From positions 2,048,001 through 2,112,000 of the forward strand of contig CM097885.1 in the NCBI GenBank assembly GCA_044892525.1: DNA of 64,000 nucleotides, given 5' to 3'. This stretch comes from Schmidtea polychroa (taxonomy: Eukaryota). The translations under genes were made by a program, and so were the position numbers. Under the pieces are notes generated by a model, which had not been told where the DNA came from, did not search any database, and was given only the letters and a program-made list of their open reading frames with translations. This document shows positions 10,272 through 64,000 of this stretch, piece after piece; within the stretch, counting starts at the first letter, position 1; every line of letters starts with the position of its first letter.

Positions 10272-10339
10272 ATATTACGAATATTAATATAAAATTTATT
10301 GAATCAAAAAAAAAGATATATGATGAAACCGAGAGATAA

Positions 10340-10467
<128 letters not shown>

Positions 10468-10489
10468 GTAATAAAAATAATAATAATAA

Positions 10490-11155
10490 TTGAATAAGTC
10501 CAAGAAATGGTATAACAATTTTATTGGCATCCAAAGGGCCACGTGGATCAGTTTTGAATAATAACCGTTTGTCCATTTCAATATCATGAGGTAATGCCAT
10601 CATTGACCGAAATTGAATGAAATCAAGACCTAATGGTCGCATCTCAGCCGATTGGGTATAGAGCTTATTAATATCCGCAATAGAACGACATATTATGTCA
10701 CAAGGCATTGCATATCCAATTTTAGATTTAAATCGAGCTGCTTCCACTTGTGCACGACATACTTGAGATCGACAATCAGGGATCATACCAATCATAACAC
10801 CTCCAGTACTTTCAGTAATGTTAAACAATCTTGTGGCTGAACTCTTCTCAATCATTTTATCTGGAACTTTTCTCTTTGCATATCTATCGATTTCATTAAG
10901 CCAATTTTTAACATTGTTAAACGAATCTTGATCGGTAACATCAAACACAACAATAATTCCATGAGCTCCTCTGTAATAAGACGAGGTTATAGTTCTAAAT
11001 CTTTCTTGACCTGCTGTATCCCATATTTGCAATTTCATAGTTTCACCATTTCCAGTATAAGAATCATCTGCAGGTCTGAATAATAAACAAGATTTTCCCA
11101 CACCAGAATCTCCAATTAATAGAAACTTGACTAAATAGTCACACTCTGGATTCAT
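10490..11155 (-). pseudogene. Intronless chimeric ORF: Rab1 N-terminal half (switch I deleted) fused to a proteasome subunit alpha-6 fragment, running into (TTA)n
   Basis: [25 protein letters not shown]...[27 protein letters not shown]...EIDRYA matches Rab1; [35 protein letters not shown] matches PSMA6; junction near 10877. Confidence 0.88.
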
Positions 11156-17762: not shown

Positions 17763-18324
17763 TTTAATCAATGCTGCCACCAATTAATCATCACTTTATA
17801 CTTATTGCCATTATTATTATCATCATTTTTATTATTATAATTTTATTCTTTTTAAATTTAAAAAAATATTGTATGAAATTGTATTCTTTACAAATTTTGA
17901 TTGAATAATTTTCGTTTTACTCTGAAATAAATTAATTTAATTTATTTATCTCTTGTTCAAAAGTCTGAATGAGGAATCCAAAAAAGTTAATTAATAAGGA
18001 AATCAGAGGGAAATGAAATTGGGTTGGATTTAAAGTGAGTTTGTAAGGTGGTAAAGTTGAGTTTTATTTTATAGAAATAATGGAAACCTTTCTAGAAATT
18101 ACTGGGACACAGCCAGGGTTTTGTCAGTTAGAGGGGAGTGTTTCAGGGTTCGAGCTTTTCCCTTAGTTCTTTTCCGAGATCCTTGCGCATGACTAGGACT
18201 ACATTAATTATTTGTAAAATAATTATTAAAAAATAATTAAAAACCACAGTGACCTTCAACTGACCTTAAATGACCTTGAAATGACATCAATAGGCTTAAA
18301 ATAGCCTTATAAATCATTAAAATC

Positions 18325-19896: not shown

Positions 19897-37070
<17,174 letters not shown>

Positions 37071-37680
37071 AGTGAACCGTTTATTTTGACACTAGTGCAA
37101 ATCGCAAGCCGTTTAATTGTTTCACTAGTTGCAGTTAATATAATTGATGTAATAAAACAAATGCTAGATTTATAATTACCGATGAAAACAAAACGGACAA
37201 GTAATATCTATGTGAGACAGACGCGTCAAACGCAAGGCATTCAAGCAGAATTGATAGGCAGCATGAAGCAAGAATGAGAAATTTTCTCCAGTCGCATTGC
37301 GATTCTTTGGCAGTCTTTAAAATGGAACTTCGACACGTTTGGAAATTCTGGATATTAGTTATCTCTAACAAAATCTTTTAAGGAAAGATAGATAAAAAAT
37401 AATTTTTAGTTGAAAAATTTAATTTTTATGTAAAATTCTCCCATTATTTGAAAGCCAATCGAAAATTTGAACTAGAGTTTCCAAAAATCCAGGGGCTCAG
37501 CTATTTTGTTAACGGCCTTGAAAGCATTACCAAAGCATTACCTCATCCCTGCTTTCTATACCAGATCCATCGTAACATTCTATAGCCATTTCCACTTGAA
37601 TTATCGAGAATCACTTTCCTCTATTTTCAAAGTCATTTGCTCTTTCCATCTACTTACTTATGTACAATTCCTATTCTTAA

Positions 37681-57463: not shown

Positions 57464-58504
57464 AATGTAGTGCCTGTTGAACCTCACTGATATTTATACA
57501 GTTACCATTTAATATTCTTTTTTTTATTTGTTTAAGAGTAATAATTTTATATTTAACTGAATGCGAGTGTAATTTGTTTTAATAATGGCGATTTTAAAAT
57601 ATACAAAAAACATGCCTCCTATACTCAGACTAGAAGCAACAAACAAAATGCCATCTTATTCCGATTTAGAAGTAACAAACAAAATAATTTCTAACTACAA
57701 AAAGCAATTCAATCCACAACGACAAGCTGAATATCAACGAATACGTCAATACAATTTCCAATAACGATGCCAACTTTATGATGGAAGATGTTAAATGCAA
57801 TAAAATTGGGAACAATGTTGAATTTACAATTTACTTATTTTTCCAATTATTAGCTTGCTGCGCGGGTAGCCCCGGCACGACAGTTAATTTTAATTTGAAA
57901 TAATATTATTATAAGAACTTTTTTATTCCAATTTCACCACTGACTTTTTTTTCATTGTATGTATTAAAAAGAACTTGGAGTATATAAATCATTAAATATA
58001 TCGATGTTTTTGATATTCACGAATTTTCTGCACTGCCTTCACTTGAAAAGGGCAATACATTGATATATTTACTGATTTATAGCCTTCAAAGTCTTTAATA
58101 AATAAAATAATATTGATTTTAAAATTATCCAACAATATATTTAAAATTATCTAAAAATATATTTAAAATCATCTAAAAATCTGTTTAAAATAAGTATAAA
58201 AAAACAAAAGATATTGTTTATGATAATTTAGAAAACTAAAACTTAAATAATTACAAAATAATATAATTTGAACTAATTGATTTACTCATATCAGATAAAT
58301 TCTTGTCGTGCTAAAGCCTTTTCCAAATATTTTCTCATATGAGAAAACCACTCAATAAATAATAATAATAATAATTCTAATGTAAATTTAATTAATTCCT
58401 TAGTAGTAGGATTGGAGCTCCCCAGACCAGGAGCTCCCCGCGCCACATATACCCCCTCCCCCCCCCCGGGAAAAAAATTTTTTTTTTTAATTTTTTGTTT
58501 TAAT

Positions 58505-59530
58505 TAATTGGCCTGGCGGGCTCACACTTTTTTTCATCCCAAAAATTAATGTTCTCGTTAACAGATTTTATTGACCGATACCTCATCTTAAAGCACAGTC
58601 CAAGACCTTTCGAATGAGCTATAGGTATCATATATATCTTTAATAGTTTTAATGTTATTAACAATTGATGACCACCATCTTTTCAACGTTAAATTATTAT
58701 TATTTTCCAAAATATTATTAATTGGCCTGGCGGGCTCACACTTTTTATCATCCCAAAAATTAATGTTCCTACCAACGGATTTTATTGGACGATACCTCAT
58801 CTTAAAGCTCAGTCCAAGACCTTTCGATTGATCCATAGAAGGTATCATCATCATTAATATTGACAAAGTTATTAACAATTGATGACCACCATCTTTTCAA
58901 CGTTAAATTATTATTATTATTCAAAATATTATTAATTGGCCGGGCGGGGACATACTTTTTCTCATCCCAAAAATTAATGTTCCCATTATCCGAATTTATT
59001 AATCGATAGCTTATTTTGAAGCGTAGTCTAAGACCTTTCAATTGAGCCATAGAAGGTATCATCATCATTAACATCGGCAAAGTTATTAAAGTTTTACCGA
59101 GACCATTTTTCAAGGTCATTTATTATTTTCAAGGTCATTTAATTTTTTTTTCAAGGTCAAGGTCAAATTTTTAATAAAAGGTCAAGGTCATTTATTATTT
59201 TCAAGGTCATTTTTTTTTTTTTTTTTTTATAATTATGTGGCCGGGAGGGCCCCTACTTTTTTTCATCCCAAAAATTAATGTTCCCGCCAACAGATTTTAT
59301 TAATCAAACACTTATTTTAAAGCCCAATGCAAGACCTTTCGAATGAGCTAATGAAGGTATCATCATCATTATTATTGACAAAGTTATTAACATTTTACCA
59401 AAAATCATTTTCAAGGTCATATAATTATTAATTGGCCTGGCGGGCCCCTACTCTTTTTCATCCCAAAAATTAATGTTCCCATTATCCGACCTTTCGAATG
59501 AGCCATAGAAGGTATCATCATCATTAATAT
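58505..59530. repeat. 214-bp tandem repeat in the Maverick terminal region (about 5 full or partial copies)
   Basis: taattggcc..catcccaaaaattaatgttc at 58505, 58719 and 58933, with partial copies near 59236 and 59429. Confidence 0.9.
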
Positions 59531-59800
59531 TAACAAAGAGAATGACTCACCCAATGACTCACCCAACGATGTCTAATATTTTTAGAACGATGACTCATCA
59601 AGGTCAAGGTCAAATTTTTAATAAAAGGTCAAGGTCATTTATTATTTCCAAGGTCATTTATTTTTTCAAGGTCATTTATTTTTTCAAGGTCATTTAATTT
59701 TCAAGGTCATTTATTATTTTCAAGGTCATTTATTTTTTCAAGGTCATTTATTTTTTCAAGGTCATTTACTTTTCAAGGTCATTTAATTTTCAAGGTCATT
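59110..59800 (+). promoter_or_regulatory. Array of about 19 YCAAGGTCA motifs plus three TGACTCA motifs
   Basis: Counted by eye; clusters at 59110-59210, 59411 and 59598-59798; TGACTCA near 59543, 59555 and 59591. Regulatory role is inferred. Confidence 0.6.
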
Positions 59801-59841
59801 TATTAAAATAATTATTATTTTCTAAGTTTTTAGTTTCTAAG

Positions 59842-59913
<72 letters not shown>

Positions 59914-60037
59914 CTATCCGACAAAATATTCTGTCCCCCTATGGGTATTGCTAGCAAGGGTACTGTTTACAAAATTACTGGTAAAAATATTCAAGACAAA
60001 ACTTTCTAAATTCTAAATATTATTCTTTAAATATACA

Positions 60038-60396
60038 CTAAAATTTATTAACACATTCACATTCATCATCTCCACAGTTCATAACATTTTCAACAACATG
60101 ATCTATACAATCCCTATATACACACGGTTCAGTATCCATAAATTCCTCCATAGGTTCATCAATTTCTTGAATGCTTTCCTCATCATTTTGAGTGTTTTCT
60201 TCATCTGTTTCATCAAATTCCGAATCTTCACTCTCTGCTACCCAGTCTATATTTAATGCGTTTGTAACAGATAATATATCCGCCATTTTCACACCAGATA
60301 TTTCTGCTAATTTTTCCAATAAAAAGTTTATTATAAATTCTAAATATTAAATAATTCGATAATTAACTAATCATATTAACCTTTTTCTGTAGTCAT
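60038..60396 (-). CDS. Maverick hypothetical acidic protein, two exons (60396-60381 and 60339-60038)
   Basis: ATG ACT ACA GAA AAA G, then a 41-nt GT..AG intron (60380-60340), then in-frame EFIINFLLEKLAEISG...; acidic tract and Cys-rich C-terminus. Confidence 0.6.
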
Positions 60397-60492
60397 TATT
60401 AGTATTTTAAAACTATAGTATATATTTGTTTATAGAAAATATAGAATATAAGCGAAAACAAATATGACTAAATACATTTATTAAATACAACA

Positions 60493-60912
60493 TTAAAATA
60501 ACTGTGAAAGTCTAGCAGACATAATTTTCCAAATTGGAGAATACACATCATTATTATCAACTTTATATCCTTGGATTGTAATTGTTATATACCAATTTTC
60601 GTTTTCTTTGAAACTGATTTCATCAAAGGAATCATAAAATTTTGCATATCGGTTGTTGAAAAATGCATTTTGATTGCATGATAGATTCGTATTCAACCTT
60701 TTGAAAACATCATCTATGGTTTTAATATCTAACATTGAAAGCGTGCCGGTTAAGAATTGAAATTGGGTAGGAATTAGCTTGATCGGTGACACCAATTTCA
60801 TATTGATTTCTTCTTTTAAAAAATACATTTTGTAGTTGTGGAACATTTGAACAGGTTGTACAAGTTCTGGAACTACTTTTGGTTTTTCAGTGCTTGAAAT
60901 TTTCTTGGTCAT
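60493..60912 (-). CDS. Maverick hypothetical protein, 139 aa
   Basis: Intact ATG-initiated ORF in the compact gene block; no family recognised. Confidence 0.65.
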   Translation of the reverse strand: MTKKISSTEKPKVVPELVQPVQMFHNYKMYFLKEEINMKLVSPIKLIPTQFQFLTGTLSMLDIKTIDDVFKRLNTNLSCNQNAFFNNRYAKFYDSFDEISFKENENWYITITIQGYKVDNNDVYSPIWKIMSARLSQLF

Positions 60913-61020
60913 TGTGAATTATGATTAAAATGAAATGGTATAGGGTTTTTATACCTATGACTATTGTTTATCATCCAATCAGATTGCAGTATGTTTTTGT
61001 TTTAATTGAATGATAAATAA

Positions 61021-61485
61021 TTAATTAAGTGATAATAAAAAATCTAAAAATTCTTTTCCTTCAATTATTGATTTAATTTCAGATATGATATTATCAACTA
61101 TACTTTTGTAATCAATATTTTTTATTCCAAGAATTACTATCTTACCGCTAGCGAATATATTTACACACATAGGGTTATATTTTATATATCTCAAAGCTGG
61201 AAATAATTCTGGTTCATAAAAGCATGGTATTAATTTAGCTAATTTATTTAAATTACAAGAAAAACCTATATCGGAAGTTACGGTTATCGATTGTATTTCT
61301 AAATCATAAACATTATATTCACTAGCTTTGATTATTTCCTTACACCCCATAATTCTACATTTACCAGTTTTGAAATATATTATTGGATATTTATTACTTC
61401 TATTGATAAGTTGTTGTGGTTTCCCTATTGGAAATACCATTTTTGATACATCAGTTTTTGCCCTGTAATTTATATTTGAAAGCAT
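61021..61485 (-). CDS. TATA-binding-protein-like protein encoded by the Maverick
   Basis: Two TBP-like repeats: IIYFKTGKCRIMG and FYEPELFPALRY..VNIFASGKIVILG (compare TBP YEPELFPGLIY..LIFVSGKVVLTG). Confidence 0.85.
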   Translation of the reverse strand: MLSNINYRAKTDVSKMVFPIGKPQQLINRSNKYPIIYFKTGKCRIMGCKEIIKASEYNVYDLEIQSITVTSDIGFSCNLNKLAKLIPCFYEPELFPALRYIKYNPMCVNIFASGKIVILGIKNIDYKSIVDNIISEIKSIIEGKEFLDFLLSLN

Positions 61486-61589
61486 TTTAATGAAATAATT
61501 TTAAAAACTTTGATATATATAGGTATTTAAAAACAGAGTTCATTTAAATTATCAATATAAACAATAATTATATAGTTTAAATTTAAAAA

Positions 61590-62228
61590 ATGGAATTACG
61601 AAATGATGCAGTATACCAAATCGTTGGTCCAAGTGGTAGCGGGAAAACTTTATTTGTTTGTAAATTACTAAAATCAAATTTGTTTAAAACAAAATTCAAC
61701 AATATTTATTGGCATAGGGGCGCCGACGAAGAACACGGATTGACGCAATCAAGTTTCTGTCAGTTGAAAAACATGAAAATAGTAAAGGGCTTTGATAAAA
61801 ACTGGTCAAGTCGTTTGAAGAAAGATGATGTCATCATTATCGATGATTTGTATCAAGAAGTCAATAAAGAAAAGGACTTTAATAATTTATTCACAAAAAT
61901 CAGCAGACATGTTGGTGTAACAGTTATTTTCATAACACAAAATCTATTTCATCAAGGTGGTGCACATCGAACACGTAATTTAAATGTACAATATTTAGTT
62001 ATTTTCAAGAATCCTAGAGATGCAACTGTCATTGATTTTCTTGGACGACAAGCATACCCTAATAACCGTAATTTTCTTATCAGTGCATTTCAAGATGCCA
62101 CGAAAATACCGCATGGGTATATATTTCTCGATTTCACACAACAATGCCCTGATGATATACGGGTAAAAACAGATATTTTCAACCCAAAAGGTGCCATGGT
62201 ATATAAACAAAGTTCAAAACAAAGTTGA
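61590..62228 (+). CDS. A32/FtsK-like DNA packaging ATPase
   Basis: Walker A GPSGSGKT, Walker B VIIIDD, SRH, ITQNLF, RNLNVQYLVIFKNPRD, PHGYIFLD. Confidence 0.93.
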   Translation: MELRNDAVYQIVGPSGSGKTLFVCKLLKSNLFKTKFNNIYWHRGADEEHGLTQSSFCQLKNMKIVKGFDKNWSSRLKKDDVIIIDDLYQEVNKEKDFNNLFTKISRHVGVTVIFITQNLFHQGGAHRTRNLNVQYLVIFKNPRDATVIDFLGRQAYPNNRNFLISAFQDATKIPHGYIFLDFTQQCPDDIRVKTDIFNPKGAMVYKQSSKQS

Positions 62229-62241
62229 AAACATATAAATC

Positions 62242-62736
62242 ATGTTTTCAAAAACAAGGATATCGGGTAAAAAACAACCAAAAGTTCCACCAACAACTAG
62301 TTATACTCCATCTAAAGATCTTATTACAGAAAATTTTCCTGCAATGAATCTTATTTCGAAAAATCCTAAACCTAAACCTAAAAGTAAAACCACTAAGAAA
62401 GTAAAAGTTGTTAAAAATCATCGGAGTTTCCCGTTTTTCAATACATTGTTAAAGGCACCAAGTATGAAAAGAAACAGTATTTTGCAATCATTTCCAAATT
62501 ATGTTGTCGATGATTTACTCGATATTATACTTAAAGTAGTCAAAGGCAAGATTAAAATCAGTAAATCTAAAAAGCAATTATTGAGTAAACATAGGAAACC
62601 TTTGCTATCATTAGTAAATAATAAAAATCGTCAACAAATGAGAAAAATTATATATAAACAACAAGGGGGATTTATCGGTGCATTGATACCTTTAGCAATA
62701 TCATTATTAGGTGGAATAATAGGAAGTCGATCATAA
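62242..62736 (+). CDS. Basic Maverick virion-type protein with a C-terminal GG/F site and amphipathic helix
   Basis: Lys-rich; ends QQGGFIGALIPLAISLLGGIIGSRS. Confidence 0.7.
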   Translation: MFSKTRISGKKQPKVPPTTSYTPSKDLITENFPAMNLISKNPKPKPKSKTTKKVKVVKNHRSFPFFNTLLKAPSMKRNSILQSFPNYVVDDLLDIILKVVKGKIKISKSKKQLLSKHRKPLLSLVNNKNRQQMRKIIYKQQGGFIGALIPLAISLLGGIIGSRS

Positions 62737-62797
62737 ACAATGGGTGCTAATCCTTCATTACCAGACATTAAATTTAATATTAAATCTTCTTGTTGTA

Positions 62798-63853
62798 ATG
62801 GAGAAGATTTGGACGAACCCGGAAGACGAAGCCGGTTTTGGTGGAGTGGCAAAATTAAGGAAAAGAGTTCCGAATTCGAAAAAGGAAACACAGAAGTGGT
62901 TATCAGACCAGCTTGCGTACAGTTTGAACAAACCAATGCGGAAACGATTCCCAACAAGAACATATAAAACATATGGAATAAATGATTTATGGCAAATGGA
63001 TTTGATGGAGATGATACCCTATTCGAAAATTAACAATGGGTATAAATATATTTTAACATGTATTGATGTATTCAGTCGGTTTGCCCGAGCAATACCCGTC
63101 AAGGCAAAATCTGCAGATGAAATGTCCAAAGCTGTTAATCATTTATTTAAAGATGGACATCCTAAAAACTTGCAAACTGATTTAGGTATTAATATTATTA
63201 TTTTTATTATTATTATTATTATTTTAGGTAAAGAATTCTACAACAGTAAAGTCAAGCAAATCCTCAATAAATTGAAAATAAACCATTACTCAGTACATTC
63301 TCAATACAAAGCTGCTCATGTTGAAAGATTTAACCGAACTTTGAGAGATAGATTAAAGAAATTATTCGTGCATCAAGGTAATAAAAAATGGGTATTGGTT
63401 TTACCAAAAATAATAACCAGTTATAATCACTCATCACATCAAGGACTGAATGGATTAAGGCCGATTGATATCACGTCAAAAACAATCTATTCTAAAAAAC
63501 CTGAAAAAATTACAAAACCGAAATATAAAGTAGGTGACCATGTTAGAATTAGTAAAATTAGTGCATCACCATTTATTAAAAATTTTGATACGAATTGGAG
63601 TGATGAAGTCTTTGTAATTTCAAAAATAAATACTAAACAGAATCCTGTAATGTATGTCATCAAAGACAATGATAACAATATTGTACAAGGAAAATTTTAT
63701 GAACAAGAATTACAAGTTATTCCTCCCCCAAAAGTATTTAGAATTCAGAAGATATTGAAAACTAAAAATAAAGGCAAGGATAAACAATACTATGTCAAAT
63801 GGCATGGTTATCAAAACCCATCATGGATATCAGAAAAGGATCTAGTAAAGTGA
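62798..63853 (+). CDS. Polinton retroviral-like integrase with C-terminal chromodomain; probable 42-nt intron at 63186-63227
   Basis: WQMDL, CIDVFSRF, LQTD-G-KEF, VERFNRTL, YN..H, KVGDHVRI, FYEQELQ, YYVKWHGY..SWI; first ATG at 62798. Confidence 0.95.
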   Translation: MEKIWTNPEDEAGFGGVAKLRKRVPNSKKETQKWLSDQLAYSLNKPMRKRFPTRTYKTYGINDLWQMDLMEMIPYSKINNGYKYILTCIDVFSRFARAIPVKAKSADEMSKAVNHLFKDGHPKNLQTDLGINIIIFIIIIIILGKEFYNSKVKQILNKLKINHYSVHSQYKAAHVERFNRTLRDRLKKLFVHQGNKKWVLVLPKIITSYNHSSHQGLNGLRPIDITSKTIYSKKPEKITKPKYKVGDHVRISKISASPFIKNFDTNWSDEVFVISKINTKQNPVMYVIKDNDNNIVQGKFYEQELQVIPPPKVFRIQKILKTKNKGKDKQYYVKWHGYQNPSWISEKDLVK

Positions 63854-64000
63854 ATTTTTATACTATTTTACCAAGCAATAGTTGCCCGCTTATTCATCCA
63901 GATAATCAAGCCAGTAAATTCATGGTCAATCTCCAGAATCCGATTTCTTTAAATGGTGACTGGGAAGTTGCACTGCAAGATTTTACATTCGTGTACAATA
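63823..64000 (+). CDS. Polinton minor capsid (penton-like) protein, 5' end, truncated by the window
   Basis: Manual translation MDIRKGSSKVNFYTILPSNS..PDNQASKF..L..PISLNGDWEVAL, the N-terminal pattern typical of the gene after the integrase in Polintons. Confidence 0.75.
   Translation, partial: MDIRKGSSKVNFYTILPSNSCPLIHPDNQASKFMVNLQNPISLNGDWEVALQDFTFVYN

Follow-up and report, generated by a model that had tools for sequence, protein, structure and literature searches.

An array of NR5-type receptor sites in the terminal region of a Maverick element: a candidate host-driven enhancer grown as a minisatellite

Why should a virus-like element carry in its terminal region a dense array of sites that look like targets of a host nuclear receptor? 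The question is raised by the last part of a 64-kb stretch of DNA (the window, by which we mean the whole stretch analysed), where the first-pass annotation had noticed the array and proposed either a host nuclear-receptor and stress-responsive enhancer or iterons for an element-encoded protein. From our analysis we propose to read the array as a homotypic cluster of NR5 (FTZ-F1/HR39) sites which may serve as the element's host-driven enhancer, and we give this reading an even chance of being right.

The placement of the array in a Maverick terminal region is borne out by the AGTAGT motif at 58402 and by the A32-type ATPase, the rve integrase with a chromodomain and the TBP encoded further inward. 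The element, as far as the window reaches, is composed as follows.

58402 to 58407, + strand: left terminus, the AGTAGT end motif of Maverick/Polinton
58402 to 59965, + strand: non-coding, internally repetitive terminal region of about 1.56 kb
60038 to 61485, - strand: three ORFs reading toward the terminus
60038 to 60286, - strand: acidic ORF, 82 aa
60493 to 60912, - strand: ORF of 139 aa, with relatives in 7 of 57 related loci
61021 to 61485, - strand: TBP-like ORF, 154 aa (PF00352, E 1.4e-15)
61590 to 64000, + strand: core Maverick genes
61590 to 62228, + strand: A32-type ATPase (PF04665, E 3.5e-07)
62242 to 62736, + strand: basic ORF, 164 aa
62798 to 63853, + strand: integrase with chromodomain (PF00665, E 4.8e-08)
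up to 64000, + strand: start only of an ORF that we take to be minor-capsid-like, cut by the window end

Maverick/Polinton elements end in (AGT)2 or (AG)3, and the former stands at 58402; no other end motif is as common among vertebrate Mavericks (PMC8097293). The predicted genes point the same way, as a retroviral-type integrase is found together with an A32-type ATPase, and the latter has 522 relatives at E<=0.001. A protein-primed polymerase B and capsid genes, which also belong to a Maverick/Polinton, would fall beyond the window end. The stretch from 58402 to 59965 is probably a terminal inverted repeat, of which only this end falls within the window. It gave no match to Rfam at E<=0.1, and we rejected two other readings of it: a structured RNA, which is without an Rfam match, and a coding region, whose stop-to-stop frames are short and repeat-derived.

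Several features of the element deserve mention in their own right. Directly behind the terminus lie two GGAGCTCC palindromes followed by a C-run (58414-58438), and the palindromes are candidate recognition sites of the integrase or of a terminal protein. TATAAA(C/T) words occur at 61556, 62202, 62234 and 62653, upstream of the ATPase, the basic and the integrase-region ORFs, and none was found directly before the start of TBP; one may conceive of an early step driven by the host and a later one driven by the element's TBP. The integrase gene contains at 63186-63227 (+ strand) a 42-bp in-frame AT-rich insertion that begins with GT, ends with AG and is bordered on each side by a short direct repeat; it is missing from 13 of 13 related integrases and is probably a recently gained intron; the genes of vertebrate Mavericks are reported as intron-free (PMC8097293).

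The array itself and the repeats in which it is embedded are arranged in this order.

58509 to 59542, + strand: 214-bp unit in five diverged copies that are 73-86% alike, the fifth shortened
58683 to 58905, + strand: non-consensus cores TCAACGTTA at 58683 and 58897, from the unit alignment
59110 to 59209, + strand: first cluster, with six TCAAGGTCA, one AAAAGGTCA and two DR0 elements
59411 to 59419, + strand: single TCAAGGTCA, in 214-bp unit 4
59543 to 59597, no strand: three TGACTCA, the first two forming a 12-bp tandem duplication, the third abutting the DR0 at 59598
59598 to 59798, + strand: second cluster, with twelve YCAAGGTCA, one AAAAGGTCA and two DR0 elements
59844 to 59904, no strand: (ATT)n microsatellite, beyond the array and before the point where contigs diverge

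YCAAGGTCA occurs 20 times in the 64-kb window, and 19 of these matches share one orientation, all falling on the + strand within 59110-59798, just as the first-pass annotation had counted them; shuffled 64-kb windows hold 0.52 on average and 2 at most. When only 58402-59965 is considered, the 19 sites stand against a shuffle mean of 0.025 and a maximum of 1 in 1000 shuffles. This excess demonstrates duplication of copies only, and not selection. The sites form two clusters, of six and twelve, with a single site at 59411, and all of them are situated 709-1397 bp inward of the AGTAGT end. Eighteen read TCAAGGTCA and one, at 59648, reads CCAAGGTCA; as this sole change (T to C in the first base) keeps the NR5 consensus, all 19 fit YCAAGGTCA, which speaks for an NR5 enhancer. 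Judged by its letters, the array thus matches the NR5 response element, YCAAGGTCA with the 5' extension, at 19 of 19 sites.

Two components of the array were absent from the first-pass annotation, namely four DR0 direct repeats AGGTCAAGGTCA, at 59154, 59179, 59601 and 59626, and two extra half-sites AAAAGGTCA. Nor had it noted that the array is nested, as a minisatellite, within the 214-bp tandem unit. The three TGACTCA that it did list, and that we take to be AP-1-like sites, are all present (59543, 59555 and 59591) and three are reached in 0 of 1000 shuffles, but two of them make up one 12-bp duplication, and two are reached in 1 of 1000 shuffles. The AP-1 or stress part of the proposal, with two independent 7-mers, may be treated as a lead only.

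A small second cluster lies outside the Maverick at 18250-18290 (- strand), with three same-direction TGACCTT, one of them a full TCAAGGTCA in the same TTTCAAGGTCATTTA context, and is a candidate for a host enhancer or for a fragment of another repeat. Elsewhere the window contains an intronless chimeric ORF joining a Ras/Rab fragment to a proteasome-subunit fragment (10304-11155, - strand), a second proteasome fragment (29451-30023, + strand), exons of a doublecortin-like kinase gene (20139-37091, - strand), for which the kinase domain was matched and the label comes from the translations, and a 34-bp minisatellite at 32106-32735.

What kind of protein could read such an array? The spacing of the sites is informative here. 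It had been described as mostly 17-20 bp, and 11 of the 18 intervals are indeed of this length, the others being 6, 6, 22, 25, 25, 187 and 210 bp; within the clusters it varies between 6 and 25 bp, which we count for the NR5 enhancer. NR5 receptors bind as monomers, and free spacing therefore suits such a receptor and does not suit iterons. Iterons and packaging repeats have a fixed, phased spacing beside the origin, and protein-primed origins lie at the very end. Sites for a protein of the element itself, be they iterons for its replication or a signal by which the A32-type ATPase would package it, appear to us very unlikely on this account, since the spacing is neither fixed nor helically phased (6, 17-19, 22, 25 bp) and 0.7-1.4 kb separate the array from the terminus, which leaves the iteron alternative of the first-pass annotation weak. 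Besides TBP, no sequence-specific DNA-binding domain was found in the 8 element ORFs scanned within the window, and an invariant 21-mer of the 214-bp unit, to which we return below, would be a better candidate for such a site. It should be said in favour of this explanation that the repeats all lie on one strand and close to the end of a virus-like, linear genome, that the element does encode an A32-type ATPase, and that the left-end packaging region of adenovirus doubles as an enhancer (10.1101/2025.07.20.665756).

For the receptor, evidence comes from Schistosoma, whose FTZ-F1 bound 11 of 37 EMSA probes (PMC8673669 S4 Table). Counted by eye in the same table, 7 of 7 probes with YCAAGGTCA were bound, one of them a DR0, and 0 of 4 AAGGTCA probes lacking the preceding C; one bound probe has nearly the flanks of our array unit, and the probe set is without TCAACGTTA (PMC8673669). 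FTZ-F1 orthologues are described as activators in that paper (PMC8673669). Schmidtea has one NR5A, one NR5B, two COUP-TF, one TR2/TR4 and two NR4A receptors (PMC11637366), while ERR is missing and GCNF is not listed (PMC11637366; PMC8363021, as far as its accessible text goes). The two NR5 receptors and the lack of ERR count for the NR5 enhancer. If the host is a triclad, ERR and GCNF (NR3B/NR6A) would drop out as binders, and we set them aside; the candidates then narrow to NR5A and NR5B. A caution against the NR5 enhancer is that in planarians the presence of a motif alone did not track regulation (PMC10558129). Established for the NR5 enhancer are the sequence of the array, the history of its expansion and what a related receptor prefers in vitro; that the host receptor binds, in which direction it acts and on which gene is what we infer.

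The same receptors might also act in the opposite direction. A precedent for a repressive or titratable receptor switch is the SV40 late promoter, and one could imagine that COUP-TF or TR2/4, sitting on DR0 elements and half-sites, silences the element until copy number or cell state relieves it. The four DR0 elements would fit this, as would the two COUP-TF and one TR2/TR4 of Schmidtea (PMC11637366) and the strong host repression of planarian Polintons, which are under PIWI control, in animals where transposons are derepressed tissue by tissue (PMC8532177); this control of Polintons and transposons we count for the NR5 enhancer as well. We nevertheless hold it to be improbable, since 15 of the 19 sites either stand alone as extended half-sites or form the downstream half in a DR0, which is the form bound by NR5, and since the FTZ-F1 orthologues are, as mentioned, described as activators (PMC8673669).

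A further question for the NR5 enhancer is how the array came into being. The 214-bp units start at 58509, 58723, 58937, 59238 and 59433, and at one and the same position units 3 and 4 have TCAAGGTCA and units 1 and 2 have TCAACGTTA, which counts against the enhancer. The array is a minisatellite of about 18 bp expanded at this one position of the 214-bp unit. The block 59598-59656 duplicates 59151-59209 with 1 difference in 59 bp, 59701-59772 duplicates 59629-59700 with 2 differences in 72 bp, and the spacers between cores vary chiefly in the length of their T-runs; on the evidence of the copies themselves, amplification went by slippage and by these two block duplications of a T-run-flanked TCAAGGTCA. 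It follows that the 19 copies represent few independent events, and invariance of the core would be expected even without selection because they reduce to few ancestors. The main argument of the first-pass annotation, that many copies combine an invariant core with variable spacers, is thereby largely accounted for by recent slippage and block duplication; the core is invariant across the 19 array copies, but not at the homologous position of the outer units.

Besides, the longest invariant run of the 214-bp unit is not the receptor motif. It is a 21-bp block, TCATCCCAAAAATTAATGTTC, present in all five units (58534, 58748, 58962, 59263 and 59458), and its p of 0.0002 in a column shuffle counts against the NR5 enhancer. 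A GC-rich box precedes this block and a conserved AAGACCTTTC follows it, and its constraint exceeds that of the receptor motif.

It would be logical to ask, then, whether the array is a neutral minisatellite. In this case a TCAAGGTCA that arose by chance between T-runs, in a terminal repeat prone to recombination, was expanded by slippage, and a receptor may bind to it without selection and without consequence for the element. We regard this as possible, at clearly less than an even chance. The recent block duplications and the non-consensus cores of the outer 214-bp units argue for it, and so does the abundance of tandem repeats in the 64-kb window, which is rich in AT-rich ones (88 rows), a point counted against the enhancer. 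Unrelated tandem repeats also occur near the left ends of three related loci, L144 (14 bp), L123 (11 and 64 bp) and L136 (34 bp). Neutrality is less easily reconciled with the choice of what was amplified, since the piece of the 214-bp unit in question agrees with the receptor site in 9 of 9 positions, those of the 5' extension required in EMSA among them (PMC8673669), and AP-1-like sites were duplicated right beside the array.

Other copies of the family allow this to be followed further. We compared the region with contigs from 4 of 24 public runs (X1, X7, X12 and X16), leaving out 58300-58505 as a repeat, so that the terminus is not covered; the family is highly repeated, and 47,032 contigs of run X1 match the 2.1 kb compared. 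Among the rows listed (40 of 201), the array span has 14 substitutions, with 0 in 165 core bases, a result with a nominal p of 0.02 that counts weakly for the NR5 enhancer, as the 14 substitutions stem from few contigs. Indels in the span number 10 among the 12 of 44 listed, and 8 of them fall in spacers; one removes one AGGTCA of a DR0 while a whole site remains, and one sits in a core. Many contig joints skip or reorder repeat units (among the joints listed, 15 of 63), a point for the neutral minisatellite, and degenerate cores at joints in some X1 contigs, again among the joints listed, count against the enhancer; together with the outer units they show that cores decay in the longer run. 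The DR0 block is covered also in X16, which bears a second species label, and this counts for the enhancer; against it, one X16 contig departs from the array at 59647 and continues with the beginning of a 214-bp unit. Cover in X16 is nearly nil at 59649-59790, which taken by itself carries no weight.

The contigs further suggest where the terminal region stops. Loose ends pile up at 59964/59965 in 4 of 4 runs, with 185 contigs in X1 (among the loose ends listed, 24 of 813), and the contigs diverge at 59965, which is 167 bp beyond the array. Six of the 8 overhang rows listed at 59962-59965 have an ATG about 12 letters on, and after this ATG the only differences between the rows of X7 and X16 fall at two third codon positions; on the opposite side of the account, the largest overhang row listed (X1, 122 contigs) is without an ATG and in one row codon 3 is a stop. 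A search for motifs of the overhang found no telling context in the window or in the 57 related loci. We infer that 59965 is the inner edge of the inverted repeat and that a gene starts beyond it at the other end of the element, which would place the larger cluster 167-367 bp upstream of that gene. Alternatively, and against the enhancer, 59905-59965 may be a 60-bp piece common to another, more abundant repeat, with the edge at 59965 as its end; in X16 the depth at 59862-60003 is about 100 times that of the remaining terminal region, which suggests that this stretch is shared with another abundant repeat. The ratio of depth inside to outside the 59965 edge, to be read with the reservation that contig depth is not equal to copy number, is 1.7 in X1 and X7, which fits a region present at two ends, and 0.8-1.0 in X12, which does not fit.

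The way in which an NR5 enhancer would work can be outlined from this. A host NR5 receptor would bind each site as a monomer, so that spacing is free. Since the region probably recurs at the opposite end, the larger cluster would stand about 170-370 bp upstream of a gene that reads inward from there, and it would act at a distance on the left-end genes, TBP among them. The number of site copies would tune transcription of the element in receptor-expressing cells. The expansion as such would be mutational, and selection would act in keeping the cores of active copies intact. Indirect support for a host nuclear-receptor enhancer may be seen in the Schistosoma FTZ-F1 EMSAs taken together with the position of the larger cluster before the ATG-bearing divergence.

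Relatives of the element give a mixed picture. Two of the 57 metagenome loci that share gene order with it, L127 and L135, have at their far end a polymerase-like ORF which is read inward, and this counts for the NR5 enhancer. This ORF has 1148-1235 aa, carries K-x3-N-S/A-x-YGK (1 of 3 motifs searched) and holds an endonuclease VII domain; it gave no PolB Pfam hit, and no capsid Pfam hit was obtained in the relatives, where the capsid labels of ORFs are our presumption. YCAAGGTCA is found 6 times, scattered over the 195 kb of the 57 loci, which stop short of a recognisable terminus, and this is counted against the enhancer; nor do these loci, which reach no terminus, show a cluster of AGGTCA or a blastn match to the terminal region. 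TGASTCA occurs there 18 times in 195 kb, which is about chance.

The relatives offer a few observations beyond the array. The endonuclease VII domain lies inside the polymerase-like ORF (L127:10212-13916(-), L135:9125-12568(-)), a ubiquitin-conjugating enzyme and a dual-specificity phosphatase appear as cargo (L127:225-722(-), L123:178-702(+)), and the position and orientation of TBP differ from one relative to another. Unrelated tandem repeats stand upstream of accessory genes (L144:1-373, L123:1337-1464 and 2773-2816, L136:802-896), and some tandem repeats of the relatives hold TGACGTCA or CCAAT words.

Wider searches brought little that resembles the array. In viral contigs no relatives were found with the ATPase alone, with the polymerase-like ORF or with the 21-mer, and a search with the alignment gave 2 weak matches there that do not look like Mavericks. 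At least 122 viral stretches have a triple-CAAGGTCA pattern, and among the matches listed tblastn connected none of them with any of the 8 element proteins; two such stretches considered as similar arrays, L091 and L097, look like coding repeats instead and were rejected. In prokaryote genomes the array pattern gave 3 single matches.

Host-factor sites in the control regions of viruses and transposons are well known, and several described systems share features with the present one. The response element of Schistosoma mansoni SmFTZ-F1 is the same 9-mer, and its site at meg-8.3 is itself located in repeated sequence (PMC8673669); there, single sites lie before host genes and were studied by EMSA and ChIP, whereas here 19 tandem copies lie in a virus-like element and are known from sequence only. 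Mouse SINE B1 with its Nr5a2 motifs likewise places an NR5 site on a transposable element, with one site per short non-autonomous retroelement that serves host genes (10.1101/2022.05.17.492379), in contrast to the tandem-expanded cluster in a DNA element which we propose to serve the element's own genes. Homotypic and AP-1 sites, with variation of repeat number that possibly tunes activity, are also found in the adenovirus ITR/packaging region and in the polyomavirus NCCR (10.1101/2025.07.20.665756); these belong to exogenous vertebrate viruses with reporter data, and a dense NR5 array goes unmentioned in the accessible text of that source (10.1101/2025.07.20.665756).

Vertebrate Mavericks resemble our element in the (AGT)2 end, the long terminal region and the integrase and ATPase genes (PMC8097293). 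Their terminal regions measure 46-1447 bp, against about 1.56 kb here if the edge proposed above is right, and the accessible text on them mentions neither internal repeats comparable to the 214-bp and 18-bp ones nor receptor motifs (PMC8097293). Unlike the Mavericks used for comparison in that text (PMC8097293), the present element carries TBP. In the literature searched, with limited coverage of subscription journals and Repbase, we found no receptor-motif arrays in Maverick/Polinton ends.

We may even suggest, with considerable doubt, that Mavericks evolve tunable switches by way of NR5-site minisatellites: the receptor, joined by AP-1 after wounding or stress, would turn on early genes including TBP, which would in turn act on the packaging and capsid genes with their TATAAAC boxes, and such switches would have arisen convergently in unrelated families. 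Particles of animal Mavericks have not been observed (PMC8097293), and if this suggestion is true, it would name the host cell type and the trigger for making those never-observed virions. If the array is neutral, it would be a clear case of repeat expansion faking a "conserved motif cluster", and would still scatter receptor sites in large number over the genome of the host. To the question of how and where animal Mavericks are switched on, the array gives concrete access in a tractable animal, with one host factor that can be named, an element defined to 200 bp and variants in copy number that occur naturally.
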